A stretch of DNA of 63,981 nucleotides, the filler included, from Reticulomyxa filosa (taxonomy: Eukaryota > Protista > Foraminifera): assembly GCA_000512085.1 (NCBI GenBank). It is 23 parts of 23 records of this genome, joined end to end, with 100 filler letters (N's around TTAATTAATTAA, not from the genome) between each part and the next. Parts side by side here need not be neighbours in the genome. Positions count along the whole stretch, not along the records: positions 1 to 4,969 come from ASPP01002743.1; 22 more parts are not named here. One strand, 5' to 3'. The position numbers were made by a program, and so were the translations under genes. Below, piece by piece: positions 629 to 61,150 of this stretch. The first letter of the stretch is position 1, and every line of letters starts with the position of its first letter. The notes beneath the pieces are model-generated. The model did not search any database. It was not told the DNA's origin and saw nothing but the letters and a program-made list of their open reading frames with translations.

Positions 629-1799
629 TCACATCCAAATTTGAATCGCATATCCAGATCCTGAAACAATTGTACTACCATCTGCTGAAATATCTACACA
701 TCTCATTGCATCGAAATGTAGTTCCAAGTTTTGTATTTCTTTTCCTGATTTTACATCCCATAAACGGATTGTTTTATCATGTGAGCATGACACTATCGTT
801 TGACCGTCTGGAAAATATTTCACTTCATTTACATTATCTAAATGCCCTTCGAATTTTTTAATTTCTTTTCCTAATTTTACATCTAATATACGTATAGTTT
901 TATCACAAGGACAAGATACAACATATTGACCATCTGGGGAAAATCTTGTATTTGTTATCGAGTCTATATATTCTTTTAATAATTGTGATCTTTCACCAGT
1001 TTTTACATCCCATAGAACAATTGTTTTGTCAGCAGATGATGACACAATCATTTGACCATCAGGTGAAAAATGTACACCTAATATACTATCTAAATGACCA
1101 ATCATTTTTTTAAGTTCTTTTCCAGAGTTTGTATCCCATATTCGAATGGTTTCATCAGATGAACCTGATACAATAAATTTACCATCAATTGAAAAATTTA
1201 CATCCCATATCCAACCTAAATGTCCTATTAATTTTTTTAATTCTTTTCCTGATGTTATATCCCACAAACGAATTGTATTATCATCTGAGCATGAAACAAC
1301 AATTTTTCCATCAGGTGAAAAATCTGCAAGATTCACCCAATCAGAATGTCCTTTTAAAATTTGTGTTTGTTCTCCTGATATAATATCCCATATTCGAATA
1401 GTGTGATCATTTGATGATGAAACAATGGTACGACCATTTACTGAAAATCTTACACTATTTATTTCTCTGTCATGCCCTTTTAAAACTTTCAGCAATCGAA
1501 AATACTTGGCCTTATATTAAATACAGATAAAATTTTTATTATGTAAAAAAAAGAAAAGCAAAAAGTAACCACTTAACATATTTGATAACAAATTTGTCAA
1601 AATCATTAATCCATCCCAATCCCACTTCTAAAATTCGAAGCCAATTTTGGATAATTATCTTTATCTCTTTTTCTGACTATTCGTTTTGTTTGGTAGTTCA
1701 GTCCAGATAATGAAATCCGTTTGTGCGTTAAGTGAAGAATTGGATAAATCTTACCGAGAATGATGTCAGAGCTTTGTTTTCAATGTTAATAGTATCCAT
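629..1799 (-). CDS. WD40-repeat beta-propeller protein (about 7 blades) with N-terminal 'WIR/LGWI.DFDK' module; exons 1799-1755, 1676-1578, 1510-629
   Basis: Repeated GH...V.FSPDG..IVS.S.D.TIR.WD units. Exons of 45 and 99 nt flanked by GT..AG phase-0 introns join in frame to the 629..1495 ORF (MDTINIENKALTSFS/SEKEIKIIIQNWLRILEVGLGWINDFDKFVIKY/AKYFRLLKVLKGH). Confidence 0.92.
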
Positions 1800-1992: not shown

Positions 1993-2403
1993 ATGACCTC
2001 TCCAGAGATACCAGCGCAACTACCATCAGTAAACTTCATTTTGACTTATTGTCCTTTGGCAATAATTGTATGTAATTTGTGATTGAACCAGTCAAAAGAA
2101 GAAGAGATTTCATTAATTGTTCAACATTGGATTCGAATATTAAACATAAAATTAGGATTGATCCATGACTTTGATCAAATTACTATCAAATATACTATGT
2201 TCTTTTTTTTTAAATGTGAAACAAAAAAACTCAAATGTTCATCTTTAATCACAGGCTATTAATATCTTTGTTTTTGATATCTTCAGTTCGTCTTCTAAAT
2301 TACTTAACATATTCACTGGACACACAAGCCGTGTAAATAGTATTGGCTACTCAATATTAGATAGCAAACAATTATTTTGTTATGTGTCAGATGATAATAA
2401 GGC
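1993..2403 (+). pseudogene. 5' fragment of a WD40 paralogue, truncated where the Tc1 relic begins
   Basis: ATG exon 1993-2028; exon 2092-2193 SKEEEISLIVQHWIRILNIKLGLIHDFDQITIKY whose donor reads AC instead of GT; third exon ...SSSKLLNIFTGHTSRVNSIGYS...SDDNK ends after one WD repeat. Confidence 0.8.
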
Positions 2404-3497
2404 TCAAGCTATCGTAAAGTGGTCAAAAATTCAAAGTTAGTATGATTATGTAGAAATAGTTTTTAACTTTTAAAAAAGACATAATTATTATGAAGAAACA
2501 ACGCAATGGACGCACACAAAAGATACCTTTGATATTACATTGTATTATTGTCGGGTGGATGGTAACTGGTAAACATTTTACAGCAATATATGTTATAAGA
2601 ATGTAAAGAAGAAATTTTGCTAATGCTTCGCGTCCAAGAATTGCAAACATGTTAAAGCAAAATCAGCTAAGTGCTAGTACAAAGCAGAAGAAACTATTAT
2701 TGACAATAAAACAGAAAAAAGCAAGATATACATTTGCATTGAAGTACCAAAGTTGGACGTTTGAAGACTGGAAAAAGGTTTTATTTTCAGATGAAAGTAT
2801 GATTAATTAAATTAAAGTGATATTATAATATATTTATGGAAAACACTAAGAACTATTAGATGAAAATTCAATAATAAGAAGATCAAAATTTGGCTGTTGA
2901 ATCATGTTAATCTGGTCATGCTTTGGAGAATTATAAACAGCATACGCTTGCAAGGTGGAAGGTGGAGTAAATTCATATATATAAAAAAATTTTATCTGAT
3001 GAAATGATAAAAAGTGTCAATTGCTGCTTAGAAAACAAAGATGATTGGATTTTTCAGCAAGATAATGCAACATGCCATAAATCGGAAAAAATATCAAATG
3101 GTTAAAACAAAAAAAAAATACAATATATTTTTATCTAAATTCGCCTGACTTAAATCCAATCGAAAATCTTTGTGGATAGTAAAGATAAGAATTCACAAAA
3201 AAGAACCATTTAATACCAGAGAAGAACTTTGGAACCAATTCGAACTAGAATGTGAAAAAGTATAAAAAGACTTATGTCAATGTCAAAGGAATATAAGTAC
3301 TTAAAAAAGCCAAAGGAAATTTAACACATTGGTAAACTTGAATTAAATTAAATATCAAACAAAAAAACTAAATCTTATAATACTCATGCACTATTCGTGA
3401 TATTTTTAAAAAATTTGATTAAATATTGTTTTTTCATGGAGAACCACAATTATCTCTATAATGTGGCGTTTTAGGTGTCAACTCTCTTTTTATACTG
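2404..3497 (+). mobile_element. Degenerate Tc1-like (DD34E-type) DNA transposon with right TIR
   Basis: Translations across stops and frameshifts: KARYTFALKYQSWTFEDWKKVLFSDES (D at 2790), WIFQQDNATCH (D at 3061), NSPDLNPIENL (E at 3162), EELWNQFELE. TIR ends TATACTG at 3497, followed by TA. No left TIR seen. Confidence 0.9.
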
Positions 3498-4500
3498 TAT
3501 ATATTGTGATATAGTGTAAACGGTCATATAAGACGACAACACTGAAAATAATAACATGAATTTATTTATGGAGTATTGATAAAAATCAAATTGATGCAAG
3601 ATGAAGAATTGGGTACTGCCCACAATTCGATGCAATCTTTGATCTGTCAACGGCGTATAAACACTTGAGAATAAAAATAAGCCCCCAAAAAAATGAAGGC
3701 ACTCCAATCGTACATTCTTCATTCAAAGTGTATGTACAACAATGAAAAGACAAAAACTTTCATTACTTTCTTTTTCGTTTGCTATTGCAAATACAATTAT
3801 AATTGCTCTTATTGTTTTTTCTTTGAGATGATATTTTTAATAATCATTCCTTATTTTAAAAAAAAGCTAAATTATTTCATGTGTAGTCGAAACACAACAA
3901 AAAATTTCTGAAAGGCAAGCAAATAAAAAATGAAAGTATACGTTGAAATTCTTTGATTTTAGTAAAATCAAATGACTTCGAATTTGAAAAATAAGAAAAA
4001 ATTTTAATTACCAAAGCAAACCAGAGAAATTATGGGTCAATCATAGATCAAGAGAGGTATTGATTGAATTCACTCATTTTTGTGTCCAGTGAATGATAAA
4101 TTTAGGCGTAATGTAGTAGCAATGGATAAGCTTCATTTGTATGACATGTGCTATTTATTGATAAACAGAACACTTCCAACTCTTCCTTTAGATGGATATA
4201 TCCTTTTCGAACATACTTTAGCAATAGACAATTTAAAGTTTTTACTAGGATGACAAATCATTTCTTGTATATCTGTCTTTGTAGGCAATCGTTAAATACT
4301 CATCGAATTCACTGAGATGCTTCTTTTTTTTTTTCACTTTGATATATAACGCTGCCTTTTTGATATTTGAATTGTACAAATTTTATTTGATTCAAGCATC
4401 TGACACTTTTATACGCTTACGTTACATCAACAAATTAACTTAGAAGTTCTTCGTCCCGTTTCGAAAAGAATTTTTTTTTACCTTTTTTGATCTATCTCAA

Positions 4501-4969
4501 ATGGAACAACTCCAACAATCATTTAGGACAATTGAAAAAGAGATTATCTCAAGGATATTGAATTTGTGTAAGGGTAACTTGGAGGAAACAAATATTATCC
4601 TGTGTTCCATTGTAGAGAACCAGTTAAACGTATTTCAACAAACTTGTCTGAATACCATTTTTTATAATAATACATCTAAATTATAGTACAACTTCCCAAC
4701 AACAGCAGCATTTAATGATTTTATTAGAGCATTTTGGTAATAAAATTGACAAAACAACTATTTTGAAGACATGGGGAAATTACAATCAAATTTTTATTGA
4801 TACACTCGAGAAATTAAAACAGATTTGTTCAACTTCCAGATTGAATGAGTTAAATGTAAATAAAATATCAAACAAACGTGTGTAAAAAAAATTTGTAAAA
4901 ACGATAGATTGAAAGAAGAAAATGGATTTAAAATATGCAGAGAAATGTGTTTGCATATTTTGTGGAATA
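4501..4969 (+). CDS. Partial multi-exon hypothetical protein (UBA/CUE-like helical start, then start of a PUB-like domain); cut by contig end
   Basis: Segments MEQLQQSFRTIEKEIISRILNLCKGNLEET..., QQQQHLMILLEHFGNKIDKTTILKTWGNYNQIFIDTLEKLKQIC and LKEENGFKICREMCLHILWN. Paralogous to 6200-6640. Domain labels are by eye. Confidence 0.6.
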
Positions 4970-6199: not shown

Positions 6200-6640
6200 G
6201 TATATCCTTTTTCAAATCCAATTAGTTTTAAATGATATTCGATTTGGCTGAAAAATGAATGAAGGACATTCTAATTTGAACATTTTCGCTTGAGATTGTT
6301 ATGCAATTGTTGTTTGTTGATTTGACGATATTCGATGCTGTTTGGATCATTTAACAAACAAACTTTTCTCAGTATTTTCATTTCACTTGCTTCTTTTTCT
6401 TTCATTCTATTTTCACACCATAAACATTGAATAATATTCATACAAAATATATTGTTGTTTTCAAAACTCATTCATGTCCCTTGTGTTACAAATATCTTGC
6501 AATTTCCATAATGTATCCAAAAAAATTTGATTGGATTTGATCCATGTTTCAAAAATGACTGTTTTGCCAATTCGATTTCCAAATAATTCCAGTAACTTGA
6601 TCAAAGGTGATTGTTGTTGGGAAGATTGTTCTGTTTGAAT
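6200..6640 (-). pseudogene. Pseudogene of the 4501-4969 family with a PUB-like domain
   Basis: QQQSPLIKLLELFGNRIGKTVIFETWIKSNQIFLDTLWKLQDIC aligns with 4690-4830. The next exon KILRKVCLLNDPNSIEYRQINKQQLHNNLKRKCSN*...HLKLIGFEKG has an in-frame TAG (6271-6273) and lacks the HILWN segment. Confidence 0.7.
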
Positions 6641-6679
6641 GCAGACAATTCAAATATTGAATATATTTGGGTGTTGGGT

Positions 6680-8514: not shown

Positions 8515-9105
8515 GTATGTATTTTGCATTTTCATCCTTCTATGAGACGATCACCTACAATATTTAGTTGTGATGTATCATGGATATCTCCACGCGAACA
8601 TGAGCGTGAAATTTTGTTTGCAAGATCTTACATACATTATATTAATGATGATCAAAAAAATAACGAAATTGCTGCGTGGAATGCGAAAATAGAGAGTGAA
8701 GACGAACATACACAAACGATATTATTGACATGGGCAAGATACGATGAGTATATACAACAAACTCTACAAATAAGTGCAATGTGGAAGAATCCTATTGATC
8801 TAAATCTCGCTTTTGTGCTTTTATTTGAAATTTACACCGATATAGACACAGTAAATATATTGCTGGGTGGGTTTCATATTTGGAAAAAAAAAAGGAACAA
8901 TGAACAAAGATACAATGAAAAAAAGAAACAATTTATGGCTCATCGTTGTTGCAACCATAATATCAATTTATTTTCAATTTTTCTTTTTGAAAATAAAATT
9001 ATAAAAGCGACTGCTGTTGAATTTGCAACAATACATACTATTAACAGTGGATTACCGTTTGTTGCAAATGACAAAGAGATTAAAAAGAATAAAATTACTG
9101 CTTAA
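8515..9105 (+). CDS. C-terminal part of a protein with a putative mono-ADP-ribosyltransferase (R-S-E clade) catalytic end
   Basis: Open frame from the contig edge to TAA 9105. CDVSWISPREHEREILF matches the ARTC [D]IS..S....ExE(V/I)L motif (E 8602, E 8608). The upstream R and STS motifs are outside the contig. Confidence 0.55.
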   Translation, partial: VCILHFHPSMRRSPTIFSCDVSWISPREHEREILFARSYIHYINDDQKNNEIAAWNAKIESEDEHTQTILLTWARYDEYIQQTLQISAMWKNPIDLNLAFVLLFEIYTDIDTVNILLGGFHIWKKKRNNEQRYNEKKKQFMAHRCCNHNINLFSIFLFENKIIKATAVEFATIHTINSGLPFVANDKEIKKNKITA

Positions 9106-9479
9106 AGAATTGTATACTGTTTTGTTTTTTTTGTATTGCTCAAAGAATTTTATGCATTTAGAAAAATATATTGATTCTAATGGTTGCAAGTAATTGATTG
9201 CTGTATCTCTTTTGTTTGCTCTGTTGTCAAAACGTCTTTAAAAAGGTGTACTTAAAAACAAGTTAAAAAAAAACTATAAAAGTTCAAAGTTATCATCAAG
9301 ATTATTTGCTATTCTTTTGTTACAAACAAAGAAAAAAATGGATGCTGTAACGCTAAAATTAGGAATTTGGTTGCATTTCACAAAAATTTTTGTTTTGTCA
9401 CAAAGTAATACGCTGGACCGACAAACTAACCCAAAAAAAATGGCCAGAGAAAGATGTAAAAAGAATAATTCAAAATTGG

Positions 9480-10090
9480 TGTCGAAATCTTCACGTAAGA
9501 GTCGGACGGATCAACAATTTTGATACAATTATTTACAGAGTCTAACAGTGTATATTTATTATAGTATTATAATCTAAATTTTTAATCGGTTAAAAGTTTT
9601 AGAAGGACATTTCGTTAGAGTAAATAGTATAAAATTCCACTTGATGATTGTATGATTGTTTCGTCATCTGATGATAAGACAGTCCGAATATGGAATGTTG
9701 TATCAGATAAAGAAATTAAAACTTTTTAAGGACATTACTGCTTGGTTTATGGAATGTAAAAATAAGTAAAAAAGTGAAATAATTGATTGGACACTTCGAT
9801 GGCGTAGGATGTGCAAAGTTTTCTCCAAATGATAAATTCATTGTGCCAAGTTCATGAGATAAAACAATTTGAATATGGGATGTAGCATTGGGAAAATAAT
9901 TAAAAAGAATAGAAGGAAATGAAAGCGTAATGGATTATGTACAATATTTTCCAGATGGACAGACTATTTTGTCTTGTTTGTGGGATGCACAATCAGAACG
10001 ACAAATGCAGCCAGCACCCAGAACACAGCTACAGAATTACAAGAGGTGATATTTCACCAACTGGAAATACAATTGCATTAAGTTATCCAT
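9480..10090 (+). pseudogene. Decayed WD40-repeat pseudogene
   Basis: KVLEGHFVRVNSIKF...IVSSSDDKTVRIWNVVSDKEIKTF*GH, LIGHFDGVGCAKFSPNDK, S*DKTI*IWDV, VQYFPDGQTI and DISPTGNTIA, with multiple stops and frameshifts. Closest to the 629 gene. Confidence 0.85.
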
Positions 10091-10812: not shown

Positions 10813-11200
10813 AGTGTTCATTCCTTTTCAATGCTGTTCATGGAAAACCCAAGGAGATGCCATGGAAATATTGGTGCTACTGCGCTCTTTGGGGTAATTC
10901 CCTTTGACTTTCAAAATACGAGTTATCACGTAAAATATTATAATATATAAATATGAATACTCATGGAAAAAAAAGTATTGTAATTGTGTATAACAGAGGC
11001 TGTGAAATGTAAGGGAGGTATGCAAAACAACAGTAATCGTGGTAATATAAATAAAAAAGGTGGCAAAGAAATAAAGACGTTGATTCGTTTATTCGGAGAT
11101 TTGATCAACGAAGAAGAGCTGCAACAGAAAATAGAATATTATAATGGAAATATAGAATTGGTGATTAAAGAGCTTGTTCAGCAATCTATTGAAAAAGAGG
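10813..11200 (+). CDS. Partial multi-exon hypothetical protein (helical, UBA-like segment)
   Basis: Exon ...KEIKTLIRLFGDLINEEELQQKIEYYNGNIELVIKELVQQSIEKE|GT with a probable upstream exon near 10813-10893. The contig ends in an (AT)n intron. Confidence 0.45.
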
Positions 11201-11398
11201 TATTAAAATAATGTTTTATTCTATTTTATGAGTATTAATATATGTATGTGTACATATATATCTATATATATATATATATATATAGATATANNNNNNNNNN
11301 NNNNNNNNNNNNNNNNNNNNNNNNNNNNNNNNNNTTAATTAATTAANNNNNNNNNNNNNNNNNNNNNNNNNNNNNNNNNNNNNNNNNNNNTTTTTTTT

Positions 11399-14900: not shown

Positions 14901-16269
14901 CTAACCAATGTAAAACAAGGAGACAACAGAAGAGCCATCAATAGCGGCTAAAGTGTTAGGCTCATTCAAATATTCACAAAAACCTTCAGCATAATAAGTT
15001 TCTACTTGCTGAGAGATTTTTTTAGGTATTTGAGGATAACCAAGTTGATGAACAAACCAGCCATCATTTTGAAAAGTAGTGGCTTGGGGATTTTCAATGC
15101 GCTGTTGAACAATTTTCTTCAGCCAAGTTTTGATATCTGTATTACTTCCAACCAAATATGTTAAGCCTTCCACAACAATCAAAAGTTGATCCAAGGAGCG
15201 AATATAAGTGACGGAATACTTTGAAGAGTTACCAGAAAATTTGCCAGGAGTGAAATCATGAATAGGAATAAACACAATTTCATTTTTGGTTTCGGATGAA
15301 GTCTGATCTTTGTTGTCATAATTTGGAATTTGGAATAAACATATGGCGTGCAGCCAACATAGTTTCGGTGGAGGGCCACAAAAAGCAAAGAGTAAATGCA
15401 TTGAACCATCCTTATTGTTATCCTTTTCAATATTCGGATATGCAGTCAAACATCGAAGCTTCAGCAGGTCCATTTGTTGCGCTGGAACAGCCCATCGCTC
15501 ACATTCATATTTATTGGCTTGTATTTGATATCTAATATATTTAAATTCATTTATATCTTGCACATATATTGAACTGTATTTTTGATTTTCTTCCTTGTCT
15601 TGCTGTTTTTTAATTTTTGGTTCTGAGCTTGAGTTTGTATCTGAATCCGCATCTAAATATTTTTGGACACACCAATGCCGATTACCAATCCCTGCAGTGA
15701 AATCCATAACACGCTTTGATTTTCCATATATGTAATTATTATTTTCTGTTTGTTGAAGGAGAACTACGTATAATGACTCTTTGTAATACGAGGTGCCTTC
15801 AACAAAATAAATATTGTCATGCCCATCCATCTGGACACTTCCCTCCCCCCCCCAACAAAAAAAAAAGAAAAAAATAAGAAAATTTGATTTTTTTTGGAAA
15901 TTTTTATTACTTGATCAATGAATTGCGACTAGTTGCACAAGTTACGAGATTGGAATAGTTGGGTACCTCTTGATTTAAATTCGCTGGAATTAAAGTATTT
16001 TTTTGGTTCATCTTATAGACGTGTCTTAAATCTGATAAAAATACTTCGCCTTTTTCATTGCTCCATATTTTACTAATTTTTGCTGGGCTTGACGAGATAG
16101 TTTTAGCTTTAATTTGTAAGGTGCCTACCAAAACTAGCTCCGGTACAAAAGAGAATATAACCTGGCATATGTCCGCTATTACACTTGGGCTTTGTCGTTT
16201 TGCTTCTTCAAAACCACGAAGATATACTCTCTTCGAAAGTAAAGCGATCAAATTATCATAATCAGACAT
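14901..16269 (-). CDS. Hypothetical protein, probable beta-rich propeller body with short helical N-terminal module; exons 16269-15911 and 15837-14901
   Basis: The 120-aa and 309-aa ORFs join in frame through a GT(15910)..AG(15838) intron. ATG start and TAG stop are present. Confidence 0.75.
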
Positions 16270-16533
16270 TGAATTTTTTTAATGACCAATGACAAAAACT
16301 TGTTCGACCTTTTTTTAAAGAAAAATGTAGCCGTGATTTATGAAGGAAAATAAAAGATAGAATTCAGTTAGTTTCATTGTCAGATGCCAGTTAAAAAAAC
16401 AAAACACTCTTTTTGAAAATGGAAGGCGTTACTTTGACAACGAATTGGTTTGAAAACAATCTTAAAAAAATAACAATGGAAAATTAAATTGGGGTTTATG
16501 AAAAAACAAAGAAATTTTAAAACAAAAAGAAGT

Positions 16534-26185: not shown

Positions 26186-27582
26186 TTATCCCCAAATACG
26201 AATAGGACCAAGACGTGAACTATAACATAGATTAACGTCACAATTATTATTGTTTTTTTTGTTCTTTTTTAACTGTAGAAATTTAAGACATAATATTCCA
26301 TCGCCCTCTTTATCTCCATTGATAACATACAATTCTTTATTATTTGATCGAATATCCCAAAATCGAATTGTATTATCTTCTGATCCAGAACATATCACAT
26401 TTGAATTACCACCGACCTCGATATTCTTTACTACAAATGGTGAATATTCAGCAGCATATACATAAGTTGTATGTCCATTGAATATTTGAGTTTGTTGACT
26501 AGATCGAATATCCCATAAACGAATACTTTTATCCCCTGATCCTGATAATATCATATTTGTACCACCAATCATTCCTAATTCATTTGTTCCATATTTTGCG
26601 GTATTCACTGTATATTGATGTCCTTTTAATACAATTAGTTGTTTGGCCGTTTCAATATCCCATATACGAATAGTATTATCCCATGATCCAGAACAAATGG
26701 TATATCCATTACCACCAATTATACCAATATCATTACTTTTATTACCATTATTGTTGTTATTGGTTTGCAATGGTGAAAATTCCACACATCGAACAATACT
26801 TCCATGCCCTCTGAAAACATGCAATAATTCGGATGTTTCAATATCCAAAAAACGAACTGTTGAGTCAAATGACGCAGCACACAAATATCGACCACCATTA
26901 AATGATGAGAATTCAATGCCACAAACACTATGACCATGTCTATTGAATATTTGTGATTTCATATTATCTTTGATATCCCAAAAACGAATTGTCCTATCTC
27001 GTGATGAAGAACAAACGACATTACGATGATGATTGTAATAATGGTATGGTGAAAACTTCACACAATGCACTTCAGATAAATGTTCATTGGCTTGAATTTG
27101 CTTGCTTGTCTCTATATCCCATATGCGAACCGTTTTATCATCTGACCCAGAACAAAGTAAATGTTTGTCATCAAATGTCGAATAATCAATACTCCACACA
27201 TATTCCGTGTGCCCACGAAGAGTCATGGACAATTTAGATGAGAAACGAAACGTGTCAAGTATGAAGAAGATAGCAACCTATGTTAAATAGTAATTACGTA
27301 TAATAACAATAAAATATCTGAACATTTGATTAATTAAATGAAAAACAAATGAACAAAAAACATTACATAATTGACAACAAGTTTGTCAAAATCGTGGATC
27401 CATCCTAGTTTAATTTTAATTTCCAAATCCAATGTTTAATAATTAGTTGGACTTCTTCTTCTGACTGATTTAACCAAACCACATACAACAAAAACGTAAA
27501 CAACCAACTTTCTAAAGGCTTGAAATGAGCTTACCAAGGCGAGCTGTGTCGAAGTTTGTTCTTTATTGTCAAGAGTAGTCAT
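26186..27582 (-). CDS. WD40-repeat protein (ICSGS.D.TIR.WD subfamily); exons 27582-27535, 27464-27367, 27277-26186; exon 2 is 1 nt short
   Basis: 348-aa WD40 ORF plus two upstream exons homologous to those of the 629 gene. Exon 2 is 98 nt (99 or 102 in paralogues), with the indel next to an A-run, so this is either a sequencing error or a young pseudogene. Confidence 0.88.
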
Positions 27583-28109: not shown

Positions 28110-28990
28110 AACTCTTTCAAACTTTGAGATAGAGAAAGTGGGATAGGCAAATCCTGCAATGTGTGCTACACAAACACGAACTCCTCATTTGTGGAGGTTT
28201 TTATCAAAGAGACTGTTATTTTTAACATACACTAAAAACGAACACAAGTTTATCTGTAAATATCCAAGTGATATTATACTACAAGGACACTGTGTAGTGA
28301 AGCCGGTGGATAACAAAAAAGATAGTAATGAAATTACTTTATTGTCTTTTGGTGGATTATCTAAACATACATTGACGATGAAATATGTAAGTGTTTGGAA
28401 TGATAAAAATGATAATGACAATGAAACAAATAATTCAAAGAAATCAAACAAATATAATCAATGGATTCCTTTCACAAACAATAATAATAATCCAATTCGC
28501 ATTACAAAATTTGAAGATTATTGTGATGGAATGCGTGCAGTGGTTGACAACCATTTGTTATTTATTACTTATCTTAGAAATAATATTAGTGTATTTGATT
28601 TAAATACACTTCAATTTATTAAACATAGTATTTTACCAACTAAATATGATATTCGTTATCATTGCTTTGTATCAAAATCAGAAAAAATGTATTTATTTTG
28701 AAAATACTTTGCCAATTCCATTGTATAATTGTTTTGGTATATTAAATAAGATAACATTCACACATATCATTGGAGGAAGAGATGGTAAAAATGATGTAGT
28801 AACAACTCACATAAAGACGAAAGTGATGTATGGAGAAATAACTTAACTCTGGTAATAATTTTTTTTATTATCTTGTATTTCATAATAATCTTTATTGTAT
28901 GAAACTGATTTATGAACAATTAACAGTCAAAAGAAATAAAACTCATTATTCAGTATTGAATTCGAATTTTAAAAATAAAATTACGAAAGA
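28110..28990 (+). pseudogene. Kelch-like beta-propeller pseudogene with C-terminal 'WIR' module
   Basis: QCVLHKHELLICGG, KFICKYPSDIILQGHCVVK, ITLLSFGG, HTLTMKYVSVW, YHCFV and HIIGGRDG with frameshifts. Last exon AG|SKEIKLIIQY*IRILKIKL at 28927. Confidence 0.8.
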
Positions 28991-29357: not shown

Positions 29358-29903
29358 ATTGTAATTGTTTGATTTGTTTAATTCATTGAATTGATTGAAT
29401 TTTTTTGATTTATTCGTTTCATTTTCATCATTATTGTTGTCATCACTCCAAACACTTAAATATTTCATCACCAATGTATGTCTTAGATGTGGAGATCCAC
29501 CAAAAGACAACAAAGTGATTTGATTGTTGTCTTTGTCGTTGTTACTGTTGCTATCTACCAGTTTCACTACACAGTGTCCATCTAATATAACATCCCTTGG
29601 ATACTGACAGATAAACTTGTATTCGTTTTTGAGTGTATGATAAGAATAACAAGCTCTTTCATCATTACCTCCACAAATGAGGAGTTCGCATTTGTGTAGC
29701 ACACATTGAGATTGATAAAGTGGAGCGGGCAACTCCTTCAAAGTTTGAAAGTGGGTATTAATCTGTTGATTTCGTTCAGTTTCAGTTTCAGGAGAGCTTT
29801 GTGTTGTAGGCAGCTCTTTCAAAGTTTGAGAGTGGGTAGTAATCTGTCGACTTTGTTCAGTTTCTTTTTTAGGAGCGTTTTGTGTTGTAGTTTGATTGCC
29901 CAT
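29358..29903 (-). CDS. Kelch-like beta-propeller protein, N-terminal part (cut by contig end)
   Basis: MGNQTT...FQTLKELPAPLYQSQCVLHKCELLICGG...CYSYHTLKNEYKFICQYP...GHCVVKLVD...ITLLSFGG. Paralogue of 28110-28990. Confidence 0.85.
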
Positions 29904-30605
29904 GTTGTTAATGTTTAGGAAGTTTTTTTTTTAAAAAAGGGGCTGTGACCTAACCCTTTTTGAGAAAACAAAAATATTGTACATTAGCATATTTTATTTG
30001 ATTAAACATAATTTGAACAATGAAAATTAAAATGAATGGAAGTTGAATTATTGTATCGAGAACTTTGAATGAAAAAATAATATGATTGTTATCTATGAAC
30101 CAAGACTGAGATTGTGACAGTCTTGAAATAACGAAAGTATCAGAAACATGGATATTGTACCTTTCTTTTTAAATTAAAAAATAACAAAAAATCAGTTATT
30201 AAGAATCTTGAAATGTTTTATACTTGTGTAGCTTTTACTTGTATTTGCATTTAGTCTTTGTCTATACACAATCCTTGTGATAAGAGAAATTAAAAAAGAT
30301 AGTTTTACTTCATTTCTTGATTATAAAAAGATTGGAGTTTTTAATGGTATTCTCCACTAATTTTTTTATCCTAAAACTTTTTTGTAAAGCTATGCAACTT
30401 GTAATCTCTGTTCGGCCAACATTTTGCAAAAAAAAACTTTGGGAAAAAAAAGTAAATTATTTACATATGTAAATCAACTTGTCAATTTATTCTTTATTTT
30501 ATTTGNNNNNNNNNNNNNNNNNNNNNNNNNNNNNNNNNNNNNNNNNNNNTTAATTAATTAANNNNNNNNNNNNNNNNNNNNNNNNNNNNNNNNNNNNNNN
30601 NNNNN

Positions 30606-38187: not shown

Positions 38188-39108
38188 GCGGATGAGGTAG
38201 CAACAGAAATTAAAGATAAGCATGTAATTTTGTTCCTTGGAGGCACCGGAAGTGGTAAATCCACATTGATACATTATCTTGCTGGATCAAAGATGGAAAA
38301 ACAAATTGTAGACGGTAACAATCATATTGCCCCTGTCGAAGTCAAAAATAAGGCTCTACGAAACGTTGTCACCAGTGCAAGAGCAGTGTCAGAGACGCGA
38401 CACATTACAGCCGTCCCAATCGATTTGAAGGAGATGAGGGTATTTACCGAGGAAGACAGTGTCGTGCTTTGTGACACTCCAGGTTTTGAAGATACAAGTG
38501 GTCCCGAAGTTGATGTTGCCAATGGCATTGGAATCATTCGGGCGCTCAAGTGTTGCAAAAGTATCAAGCCTGTGGTCTTGGTCAGTTATACTGCATTAGG
38601 GAATCGAATGAGTTGTGTTAGAGGCTTGGCTCGTACCTTAGGACAAATTATCTCATCAATTGATGATCATCTCAGTGCAGTTGAATACGTGTTTACCAAA
38701 TTTCCCAAAAAAGAAAAACAAACAATCCCTGCGTTGGTACGAGAAACTTATTTCAGCATACCCAAAGACGAGACGGACAAAGGGTACAAGTCAATTCTGG
38801 CAGATATCGCTAGAAAAACAAAGAAGTATGTGTTTGCACCTCATTTACTCGAAGATCCGCCTCTCGATTTATTGCAGGAACTTACCGATATAAGAAGCTT
38901 CATCCGCCATCCAGAAGAGGTATTTCAATCTTTCCTTACTGAAAAAGCAAACCATGCTGTCCACTTACAAGTGGAGAAACACAAGGCTAGTGTTTTGCCA
39001 GCATTCAAAAATTGCAACTTCAAATTTGTTCAAACGAAGTTGGACGAACTCGTCGCTTTAAACGCAGTTTTGGAAAATAAGTTGATTGAAAAGGATTACA
39101 AGGAATAG
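38188..39108 (+). CDS. P-loop GTPase domain, AIG1/septin/50S-ribosome-binding-like (TRAFAC); 5' missing and possibly truncated
   Basis: G1 GGTGSGKST, G2-like SET, G3 DTPGFEDT and G4-like VFTK, followed by a helical extension. Frame open from the contig edge to TAG 39108. Confidence 0.8.
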   Translation, partial: ADEVATEIKDKHVILFLGGTGSGKSTLIHYLAGSKMEKQIVDGNNHIAPVEVKNKALRNVVTSARAVSETRHITAVPIDLKEMRVFTEEDSVVLCDTPGFEDTSGPEVDVANGIGIIRALKCCKSIKPVVLVSYTALGNRMSCVRGLARTLGQIISSIDDHLSAVEYVFTKFPKKEKQTIPALVRETYFSIPKDETDKGYKSILADIARKTKKYVFAPHLLEDPPLDLLQELTDIRSFIRHPEEVFQSFLTEKANHAVHLQVEKHKASVLPAFKNCNFKFVQTKLDELVALNAVLENKLIEKDYKE

Positions 39109-41574: not shown

Positions 41575-42045
41575 AGTGTAAAATATGCATCAAATGAATT
41601 TGTAGATACTGGTTGTGCAAATACAATATTATCTGGGTCATGGGACAACAGTGTTCGTTTATGGGATATTCGATCTGGTCAACAAATTCAAGTATTCAAC
41701 GGACATACAAGGGACACGAATGCTGTTGAATATTCACCATTTGTAGTAGATAATAATGAAGCTGGTTATATTTCAAATGTGATATGTTCTGGATCGGCAG
41801 ATAATGCAATTCTTTTTTGGGATATTCGATCAAATAAGAAGGAATTGTATGTTATTAAAGGAGATGATCAAGAGGATAATGGAATAATATCTCTTAAATT
41901 TTTCGGCTTCAAAACAAAAGAAAATGGCAAGATCCGTGATAATCGTGATTGTGGTATTAATCTGTGTTATGGCTCAGGAAACGGTTATATTCGTGTTTGG
42001 GGGGTAACACCATTTTTCAATAACAAAAAATGTTTGATGATTTGA
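41575..42045 (+). CDS. C-terminal part of a WD40-repeat protein (same subfamily as 26186-27582)
   Basis: SVKYASNE...TILSGSWDNSVRLWDIRSGQQIQVFNGH...VICSGSADNAILFWDIRSNKKELY...IRVWG. An extra G in TGGGGGG appears to bypass the family's WG* stop. Confidence 0.85.
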   Translation, partial: SVKYASNEFVDTGCANTILSGSWDNSVRLWDIRSGQQIQVFNGHTRDTNAVEYSPFVVDNNEAGYISNVICSGSADNAILFWDIRSNKKELYVIKGDDQEDNGIISLKFFGFKTKENGKIRDNRDCGINLCYGSGNGYIRVWGVTPFFNNKKCLMI

Positions 42046-45052: not shown

Positions 45053-45616
45053 TTTCAGTCTACCAAACACACACACAAAAACAAAGGACCTGCCAACATC
45101 AACAATTTAGCGCAAGGGATAGTTAAAAATAAATCGCTCATTCCAACAAACCAGTCTTCCCAAAAAGGTTTTGATTTCATGATATCAGTGCGCCATTTGA
45201 AAACGCGAAGTTGTTCATCCCATCGAAACATAGGCGGGACGCTGAGCCTGGCGGACAAGTGGTTTCGAATCATGCCGCTGCTGACACAATAGTGAATGCA
45301 TTCCCAAAGGTGGGTAAATTGTTTGGGCCTGCCGTCAATGATTAGAGGCATATGTTGCAGCGAATCCAAGGCCGTGCCTTCCACCACGTCAATGACGACA
45401 ATGCCTTGCAAGGAAGGGAGAAGTTTCTGCGAAATGGCTTTATTGGCACAGTGGATCGCCAAGGCACCTCCCAGCGAATGTCCAACCAAAAGCATTGGCG
45501 GAGGACTGTCCGTTCCAAATTTTTTATTCACTACAGCAATTATATCATCGACCAGTATATCTTTTGTCCAATTGTATTCCTCTTTGTCTTCCTTCATTAC
45601 CGTATCTCCATGGCCT
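44799..45616 (-). CDS. PPME1: Protein phosphatase 2A methylesterase 1 (PME-1), 5' exons missing; exons 45616-45090 and 45004-44799
   Basis: GHGDT, nucleophile motif GHSLGG, DVVEGTA, RP..F, SARLSVP, W..WF.G.S..FL, KLL.LA.TDRLDK.LMIGQMQGK and GHAVHED.P are signature PME-1/Ppe1 segments. In-frame GT-AG intron. Confidence 0.93.
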
Positions 45617-45638
45617 CTTTTAATATATGTATACATAT

Positions 45639-45672
<34 letters not shown>

Positions 45673-46959: not shown

Positions 46960-48251
46960 TTTTTTAACTTTAGAAATTTAAGACATAATATTCCATTGTT
47001 TTCATTATCTCCTTTGATCGAATATAATTCTTTCTTATTTGATCGAATATCCCAAAATCGAATTGTCCCGTCATCCGATCCAGAGCATATTGTATTCCTA
47101 TTACCATCAACTACAAATGGCGAATATGCAACAGCGTTCACACGATAGTGACTAAATACTTGAATTTGTTTACCAGATCGATTATCCCACAAACGAACAC
47201 TGCTATCACTTGACCCAGATAATATTGTATTTGCACAACCATTAATCCACGGTCCATATTTTACACTTTTCACATAATGTTCATGTTTTTTGAATACATT
47301 CAATTGTTTGGTTGTTTCAATATCCCATATTCGAATGGTTTTATCCCATGATCCAGAACAGATTGTATATCCATTTCCACCAATCACACCAATGCTATTA
47401 CTTTCAAAATGGTTGCCATAGCTTTGCAATGGTGAAACATCAACACACCAAATGGCATCTGTATGTCCATTGAAAACATGCAATGATTTAAATGTTTCAA
47501 CATCCCATAAACGAATAGTTTTGTCATATGATCCAGAGCACAAATATCGACCATATTTAAAGGTGACACTTCCATGCAATAAATAGAATCAGTATGTTCA
47601 CCAACTACTTGTGTCTTTCGATTATCTTTGATATCCCAAAAAATTATTTTTTCATCAACTGATGAAGAACAAATCACACTGCGATAATGATTACGATAGT
47701 GATATGGAGAAAATTTTACACAATATACATCACTGGAATGTCCCTTAAACTGGGTTTGTTTGCTGGCCTCCATATTCCATAAACAAACTGTATTATCGTG
47801 TGATCCAGAACAAATGAATTGACACCATCGAATGCTGCATAATCAATACTATTCACACTACGTGTGTGTCCGGTGAATATCTTGAATAATTTCGAAAACA
47901 AACTAGATATATTAAAAACGATTGTACTTGCCTATATTAAAATAGTGATTATATATGATAAAAATAAATAAGAATTTAACATCTGGTTGACATGAATAAA
48001 AAAAAATAATGCACAAAAGAAGCATTACATAATTGACAACAAGTTTGTCGAATTCACGGATCCATCCTAATTTAATGTCGAATTTTCGAACCCAATGTAC
48101 AATAATAATTAGAATCTCTTCTTCTTCTGACTAATTCGGTCACAAATCATACACAATAATGTAAAGACAATCAACCTTTCCAAAGATTAAACTGAAGCTT
48201 ACTTACCAATGATTGCTGTATCGAGATTTGGTTTTCGTTAAAAGTAGTCAT
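46960..48251 (-). pseudogene. WD40 paralogue with two frameshifts; exons 48251-48207, 48130-48029, 47931 to contig end
   Basis: Same three-exon layout (SEEEEILIIIVHWVRKFDIKLGWIREFDKLVVNY). The WD40 frame is split across ORFs 47716-47901, 47384-47773 and 46908-47579 (shifts near 47820 and 47565). Confidence 0.8.
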
Positions 48252-60000: not shown

Positions 60001-60093
60001 AGTGAGATTAAATTTATTATTCAATGTTAGATTCGAATTTCAGAAATAAAATTATGATGGATTGATGGTTTTGACAAAATTATTATAAAATAC
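60001..60093 (+). pseudogene. Isolated decayed copy of the 'WIR/LGWI.DFDK' module
   Basis: SEIKFIIQC*IRISEIKL*WIDGFDKIIIKY, with two stops at the conserved W and G positions. Confidence 0.7.
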
Positions 60094-60474
60094 CTTAAAA
60101 GTACTAATTTTGGTATAAAATAACTATGAAGAAGCACAATTGAATTATCTCTAAATAATGTCTTCTTTAAATACTTATCATAAAAGTGCAATTCTGCAGT
60201 ATTTAAAAAAATTGATTCATTACTGTAGACTTATCCGTTGTGACAAATAAAAAACAATGATATGAATAACATCACATTGACCCCAGTAACGTCAGCGAGT
60301 TCCCACTTAATAAGCGAAGCTTAAAAATCTAATTATACCCCCAACTATCATAACGCACACCTTTTATAATTATTATTTCTCATAGAAATTTTTAAATTCT
60401 TTTTTTTGATTATTTTATCAAAAATATATTGATAAATTCCATTTTTTATTGAAAAAATTGTAAATTCTCTCTAT

Positions 60475-61150
60475 TTGATTTCTTTTCTCTTTCCAAGCGG
60501 AGATTCAACTTTTGGAGGGAAGTTAATCTTTGTCACTGACTTGCAAAGCTGCAGTATGAGCAAAGGCGAGATATTGGAAGACACAGCTCGTTGTCTGACC
60601 CAATATTGCAGCGCAGTGTGTACGTCATTATACCAAAGGTGCAGCAACCGACAAGCGGTTTTAGATTTGTTTACGATGTTTGAATACAGCAAGAGACAGA
60701 AAATTGATGAATCGACTGTGATTTTCATCGGTGATTTGAAATAGAAGAACAGTGTATTCATTGGTTCAGGCTTTGCTCAAATCCAGAAATAGTAAGGTTC
60801 ACTTAGTGTCACCGAAATTTTTTGGCTTTCTGGATGAATGTAAAAGTAAGCTGATTGGGGATGAACATATCAAGAAATATAATAATGTCATTGTTGAATC
60901 GGAAGAAACACTTCTTTAAACTGTTGATGTCGTGTATCTCGTATCCAAAAGAACGCTTTTTGATAGTAGCATTTTTACGAAAAGTTTAAAGCGTCTGAGC
61001 ATAATATAATTTTAATGTATCTTTTGTAACGAGTTGACGAAATCGCTATCGAATGTGACGATTCAAGTACTTCCAACATATGAAATGTGGGATGTACATG
61101 CGAATAGCTTTACTGAGCAATCACTAACAAATGAATGAAAAAATGATCAA
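60475..61150 (+). pseudogene. Decayed coding sequence of unknown family
   Basis: Protein-like composition across several short frames interrupted by stops; no family recognised. Confidence 0.3.

Follow-up and report, generated by a model that had tools for sequence, protein, structure and literature searches.

The foraminiferan Reticulomyxa filosa appears, as judged from its sequence, to encode a large receptor repertoire evolving by birth and death, the members of which share an unnamed and constant docking module attached to WD40 or Kelch propellers. The module was found in a window of 63,981 nt, which consists of 23 AT-rich short contigs of this species (GCA_000512085.1) with spacers between them. 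In the mechanism that we propose, the constant 33-residue module would tie WD40 and Kelch propellers, hypervariable and numbering in the hundreds, to one common partner, most likely an adaptor of cullin-RING ubiquitin ligases (CRLs), and the targets bound by the propellers, possibly foreign proteins, would be ubiquitylated; we assign a probability of roughly one half to this reading. Expanded receptor families that combine a variable binding face with a constant adaptor module and are linked to defence occur in nematodes and plants, and the same pattern is now seen in a member of the Rhizaria, whose module no library names. The receptor logic is of a known kind, and what is new is the module, its placement between two propellers, and the lineage.

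The motif S.EEI..IIQHWIRIL.IKLGWI.DFDK.V..Y, which a first-pass annotation of the window had placed at six sites, was recovered by a profile search at all six, and the search added a seventh copy (c7; profile match 9447-9533 (+), 21.2 bits). The window copies scored 7.9-68.6 bits, the three copies that seeded the profile scoring high by construction, and no score above 4.1 bits was reached in any of 30 block-shuffled windows, so that chance matching was rejected as the origin of the copies. The loci are presented in Table 1. As proposed in the first-pass annotation, the motif in WD40 genes is an exon of its own ahead of the propeller, with phase 0 on both sides in c1, c3, and c4 and 5' phase 0 in c2, as also in the Kelch copy c5. 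The first exons of c1-c4 (36-48 nt) have phase-0 ends throughout, and the reading frame is taken up again by the WD40 exon in the same phase. The acceptor AG|TCA was present in c1, c2, c3, and c4 and also in the Kelch pseudogene c5, in which the motif follows the Kelch part as had been stated, and the donor TAT|GT was present in c1, c3, and c4. The 5' phase-0 intron is, hence, common to both gene types; that of c5 is 75 nt long and begins at a phase-0 donor (28851|28852), and the 3' end of the c5 motif is unreadable because the motif is truncated.

Table 1. Exons and remnants of the seven motif-bearing loci in the window.
Feature	Position	Strand	Description
c1 first exon	1755..1799	-	15 codons, phase-0 donor
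c1 motif exon	1578..1676	-	33 codons, phase 0/0, intact, 64.6 bits
c1 WD40 exon	629..1510	-	subtype II, seven repeats, open up to stop
c2 first exon	1993..2028	+	12 codons
c2 motif exon	2092..2193	+	34 codons, 3' GT donor gone, 68.6 bits
c2 WD40 subtype I exon start	2255..2398	+	broken off; Tc1/mariner-like remnant next
c3 first exon	27535..27582	-	16 codons
c3 motif exon	27367..27464	-	98 nt, one base missing in A-run; two frames, 25.6 and 7.9 bits
c3 WD40 subtype I exon	26186..27277	-	open
c4 first exon	48207..48251	-	15 codons
c4 motif exon	48029..48130	-	34 codons, phase 0/0, 65.9 bits
c4 WD40 subtype I exon	46960..47931	-	at least 2 frame changes, contig end cuts exon
c5 Kelch-like pseudogene	28112..28851	+	frameshift, internal deletion, stops; terminal phase-0 donor
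c5 motif after Kelch	28927..28986	+	AG|TCA acceptor, one stop, truncated; profile match 28930-28983, 10.9 bits
c6 orphan motif	60001..60093	+	two stops, acceptor absent, no propeller nearby; profile match 60004-60093, 26.3 bits
c7 motif	9441..9536	+	decayed splice sites
c7 WD40 remnant	9587..10077	+	carries stops and frameshifts

Only c1 splices to a stop-free open reading frame (341 aa), seven stretches of which are matched by Pfam WD40. Thus, the estimate that half of the copies are dead was too low, with one of the seven intact and six carrying lesions. Splice-site loss, stops, frameshifts, or a transposon insertion affect c2, c4, c5, c6, and c7, and the one-base loss in c3 may be a sequencing error. 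The assignment of the copies to propeller genes held for c1-c5, and c7 also lies on such a gene; it failed for c6, which has no propeller match nearby. The element that interrupts c2 is a decayed Tc1/mariner-like transposase at 2500-3360 (+), with a match to HTH_Tnp_Tc3_2 at 2607-2807 (E 2.5e-6, below cutoff). Two further propeller pieces, the N-terminus of a Kelch gene at 29358-29930 (-) and the C-terminus of a WD40 subtype I gene at 41575-42042 (+), are both cut by contig ends.

Relatives were found in Reticulomyxa filosa wherever a match was named, that is, in 40 of 40 named matches of the motif search, 42 of 42 of a profile of divergent motifs, and, in the search with the Kelch part, all 120 matches listed out of 276. 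A search of representative sequences gave 204 clusters (50% identity, E<=0.001), the best 150 of which were considered, the other 54 being weaker and possibly including other taxa; the 10 clusters looked up all belonged to Reticulomyxa filosa. Pattern matches in metagenome, viral, and prokaryotic genome contigs (97, 19, and 46, respectively) yielded no confirmed relative. The published assembly of this species consists of 50,809 scaffolds with 39,965 genes (PMC13746701), and because of this fragmentation many gene models are partial. Among listed papers and abstracts on Reticulomyxa or foraminifera in combination with WD40 or Kelch domains, F-boxes, cullins, or caspases, none was seen to describe the motif. 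The genome paper of the species, which is not among these, reportedly deals with amplified gene families, and the WD40 and Kelch expansions may already be included there.

Across 213 motifs, W12 was conserved in 100%, W22 in 98%, G21 in 97%, and Y33 in 96%, and the near-invariant positions as a whole were W12, R14, I18, G21, W22, I23, F26, and Y33. An AlphaFold model of P0142, a protein with the order Kelch-motif-WD40, was built from 70 sequences and contained a Kelch-like all-beta propeller (residues 27-333) and a WD40 propeller (381-667), both confident, joined by the motif as two helices (344-361 and 364-375; pLDDT ~44-50). The motif of P0006 was likewise modelled as a helix-loop-helix with low confidence, the pLDDT of the block being ~32-64 over the two models, and both predicted helices are amphipathic (moments 0.58 and 0.55). 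The motif lay outside the blades in these predictions, as expected for a module of its own, and a propeller blade was, thus, rejected as an interpretation at the level of the models. Foldseek with both models returned propellers only, and the WD40 part is further identified by PDB WD40 matches and its confident model, and the Kelch part by Pfam Kelch_1 in P0128 (31.7 bits; cutoff 20.1). The low confidence of the motif could reflect folding upon a partner. A homodimer prediction from two copies of P0128 residues 370-412, run with no family alignment or control folds, scored 0.01 against a mark of 0.32, a value that speaks neither for nor against a dimer.

The module is more conserved than the propellers it adjoins in several comparisons. 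Between WD40 subtypes I and II, the identity was 52-56% in the motif and 32-35% in the propeller, and between subtypes I and IV, it was 43% and 22-23%, respectively; between subtypes II and III, the values were about equal (48-51% and 47%), and in Kelch-linked proteins, the motif (0.98 bits) varied slightly less than the whole Kelch domain (1.1). The variability of the propellers is concentrated on one face. Over 30 subtype-I proteins, the 17 columns at the hot-spot positions that we take to mark the WD40 top face averaged 2.85 bits (p=1e-11), compared with 0.81 for the remaining 252 columns and 0.71 for the motif, and hot spots made up 15 of the top 25 columns by variability. In the Kelch propeller, for which the loops were assigned by hand and the top loops are longer, the top loops had 2.2 and 1.65 bits and the bottom loops 1.05 and 0.79 (p=6e-6); these values, like those for WD40, are column entropies and not dN/dS tests. 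The view of a large birth-and-death family is, hence, well in line with the 204 clusters, the lesions in six of seven window copies, the hypervariable propeller faces, and the constant module.

To describe domain architectures, we assembled 313 proteins, 248 of which carried the motif in 249 instances, a set that is biased by the searches and is not a genome count. The motif was followed by WD40 in 152 of the 249 instances, by nothing recognised in 97, and by Kelch in none, and it was preceded by Kelch in 88. Of these 88, 64 had nothing after the motif, 15 had WD40 subtype II, and 9 combined a coiled segment with subtype III, so that Kelch-motif-WD40 accounted for 24 of the 249. The module is, thus, not limited to one propeller family, as it occurs on one family of Kelch propellers and on WD40 propellers of at least four subtypes. 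Among the 120 Kelch matches listed, of 276, 55 models included the motif, and many of the motif-less models end by reading into the intron that precedes it. Kelch proteins keep the motif at the extreme C-terminus, with 33 models ending within 6 residues of it. The motif consensus tracks the WD40 subtype of the same protein, and the motifs that terminate Kelch proteins were nearest to those of the Kelch-motif-WD40-II proteins (0.59 as against 0.48-0.53). Three gene models, some of which may be merged ones, depart from these orders, namely, P0308, with a calponin-homology domain ahead of motif-WD40-I; P0159, with two motifs (WD40-I, Kelch, WD40); and P0248, a WD40-motif-WD40 fusion.

The first-pass annotation had regarded the motif as a symmetric exon shuffled independently to N- and C-terminal positions. 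Such shuffling is the less likely reading, given the absence of the motif ahead of Kelch (0/249) and the proximity of the Kelch-terminal motifs to those of Kelch-motif-WD40-II. A fusion followed by the loss of WD40 is favoured instead because Kelch-motif-WD40 proteins exist, the motif never precedes Kelch, and the motif tracks the WD40 subtype. In this history, WD40 genes would have been the source of the module, as their N-terminal piece. On at least two occasions, a Kelch gene would have become joined to the upstream side by way of the phase-0 intron, and later loss of the WD40 exon would have left Kelch-motif genes. Both motif positions would, therefore, be explained without moving the exon alone, and the motif behind Kelch is better explained by this simplest history, insofar as sequence comparison can tell. 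The Kelch tree was star-like with the architectures intermixed, and its internal support was too low to order the fusion events. Identical-codon fractions across classes (0.55-0.71) were close to the ~0.55-0.62 expected from codon bias, by which measure the movement of the exon is undatable, and intron similarity across classes was weak (z ~2 at best).

Turning to the identity of the module, Pfam searches of 24 members at E<=10 gave one weak unrelated match, although the filters of HMMER may drop weak matches, and no F-box, LisH, or RIIa/Dpy-30 family was among the matches. Searches of PDB sequences gave three chance-level matches and later none, and the Atlas named no family for the motif, which is, thus, unnamed as had been supposed. 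Helix 1 of the F-box begins with LP-x-E; neither the dipeptide LP nor this start, flanks included, was found in any of the 213 motifs. The module resembles F-box/WD40 proteins in being a short helical module ahead of WD40 and in the hydrophobic spacing of its helix 2, which by eye resembles that of helix 1 of the F-box, but it differs from F-box/WD40 and F-box/Kelch proteins in the lack of the LP start and of a Pfam match, in having only two helices, and in standing C-terminal to Kelch. The SOCS-box (BC-box and CUL5-box) and the VHL-box (BC-box and CUL2-box) are carried at the C-terminus by WD40 and Kelch receptors. Receptors with these boxes share with the Kelch-motif proteins a short helical module C-terminal to the propeller; however, the motif lacks the box prolines, and a BC-box-like pattern occurred in 0 of 213 motifs. 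The CUL5-box pattern, as given in PMC13061254, was found in 0 of 213 motifs, and the CUL2-box pattern from the same text in 2 of 213, or 5 with flanks. As a result, a canonical F-box, SOCS-box, or VHL-box was ruled out by the Pfam search and the failure of the patterns, and the motif does not fit the F-box and SOCS/BC-box modules that the first-pass annotation had brought forward.

A less constrained type of docking is offered by CRL4, whose receptors are described as binding DDB1 via a helix-loop-helix, the sequences of which resemble each other very little; WDxR makes no direct DDB1 contact and is not universal (PMC13061254). The Reticulomyxa proteins may resemble DCAFs in a predicted helix-loop-helix directly N-terminal of WD40, a compatible hydrophobic and basic spacing, and, in subtype I, paired WDxR (two motifs in 14 of 18 long proteins); WDxR was missing from 11 of 11 Kelch-motif-WD40 proteins. 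The H-box spacing taken from the DCAF1 segment in PMC3928422 was present in 165 of 213 motifs in one register, a match that barely exceeds chance because 41% of shuffled motifs show the spacing somewhere. Unlike DCAFs, the motif also terminates Kelch proteins, and the high-confidence human set consists of 49 sequence-diverse proteins, whereas that of Reticulomyxa is a single expanded motif family (PMC13061254 and PMC3928422). We infer that DDB1 is the best-fitting candidate, with about half of the probability given to CRL adaptors, because the shape and position of the module fit the CRL4 helix-loop-helix (PMC13061254); Skp1 would come next, and Elongin C would be least likely. Docking on one shared partner is proposed because the pattern is that of the nematode F-box and MATH-BTB adaptors, which expand by birth and death and in which the substrate domain is variable and the short module that binds the partner is conserved (PMC4334554), just as the propellers of Reticulomyxa are variable and its module constant. 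Unlike either of these boxes, the Reticulomyxa module can separate two propellers, matches neither of them, and has only a putative link to cullin.

The main alternative, possible although unlikely, is that the motif is an oligomerisation module, like LisH or a four-helix bundle of the RIIa/Dpy-30 type, in a signalling repertoire resembling innate immunity, in which propeller sensors would be paired through it, either among themselves or to effectors of caspase- or ADP-ribosyltransferase-like type. Two amphipathic helices, a Gly-Trp turn, and a length of ~33 residues near that of LisH, all adjoining propellers, are reminiscent of LisH-WD40 and RIIa/Dpy-30 proteins in a by-eye comparison with the family patterns, and double-propeller proteins do occur; however, no member out of 24 matched LisH or RIIa/Dpy-30 in Pfam, the first helix is longer in Reticulomyxa, and a dimer is only putative. 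With respect to effectors, 8 of the 120 Kelch matches listed, of 276, are fused to a caspase domain, and this fusion in the same Kelch family suggests signalling rather than degradation, yet all eight are without the motif, and because of this, the homotypic link to a caspase effector is missing. These proteins (P0059, P0065, P0086, P0096, P0099, P0108, P0119, and P0138) consist of Kelch, a charged helical linker, and a caspase, listed as PF00656 in seven and by name in P0086. A caspase-like protein of Reticulomyxa filosa has already been published (PMC10959488). Both P0310 and the region upstream of c7 contain a domain without a name that has weak ADP-ribosyltransferase structural neighbours, and it could be counted in favour of effectors, except that these neighbours are below the Atlas bar. 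It was noted in an open reading frame at 8515-9102 (+), 340 bases upstream of c7, which has no Pfam or PDB match, shares 52% identity, across 189 aa, with the N-terminal part of P0310 (a protein with the order unknown domain-Kelch-coil-motif), and has ADP-ribosyltransferase clusters among its Atlas structure neighbours, again below that bar. A broader proposal, which we regard as doubtful, is that a new ligase or signalling box, unrelated to the F-box, BC-box, BTB, and H-box, joins several hundred hypervariable receptors with one or two propellers in one complex and, with the Kelch-caspase and ADP-ribosyltransferase-like fusions, forms a modular innate immune repertoire of this giant foraminiferan, a single-celled organism.

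It is improbable that the family is the product of selfish or neutral amplification, with the motif riding along as a passenger exon that has no particular role. Such an origin is consistent with the lesions in the window copies, the star-like Kelch tree with its intermixed architectures, and pairwise dN/dS values that are mostly below 1 but reduced only to a moderate degree (WD40-I bodies, 0.50-0.74; 15 motif pairs, 0.26-1.33; all from short window pairs that are mostly pseudogenes); however, all five motif pairs that include the intact c1 had values of 0.26-0.62, the residues W12, W22, G21, and Y33 are nearly fixed in the 213 motifs, and variation clusters in the ligand-face columns, a pattern not expected from neutral decay. 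Hardly probable either is a structural cap or a membrane or cytoskeleton anchor, packed against the bilayer or the propeller of the same protein and without an enzymatic partner, given that the motif, although it adjoins the first WD40 strand in the 152 instances noted above and has amphipathic helices with two near-invariant tryptophans, is kept across propellers of 22-35% identity and a different propeller class and was modelled by AlphaFold without confident packing on either propeller.

If the module does dock onto a shared adaptor, one bait of 33 residues would be enough to identify the partner for hundreds of unannotated genes, and the module would be revealed either as a new cullin-adaptor box or as a highly divergent form of a known one. 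Proteins of the Kelch-motif-WD40 order would then be receptors with two heads.

The window also contains other coding sequences. Recurrent short pieces of helical open reading frames without a Pfam match, at 4444-4882 (+), 6464-6649 (-), and 10984-11208 (+), probably represent another expanded family. A gene at 14904-16278 (-), with no Pfam match and no motif-profile score, encodes a short N-terminal helical segment with F-box-like spacing by eye and then a beta-rich domain. A 306-codon open frame at 38188-39105 (+) encodes a P-loop NTPase with a weak match to MMR_HSR1/RsgA, and fragments of an alpha/beta hydrolase and of a carbamoyltransferase-like protein are located at 45058-45672 (-) and 60436-60741 (+), respectively.
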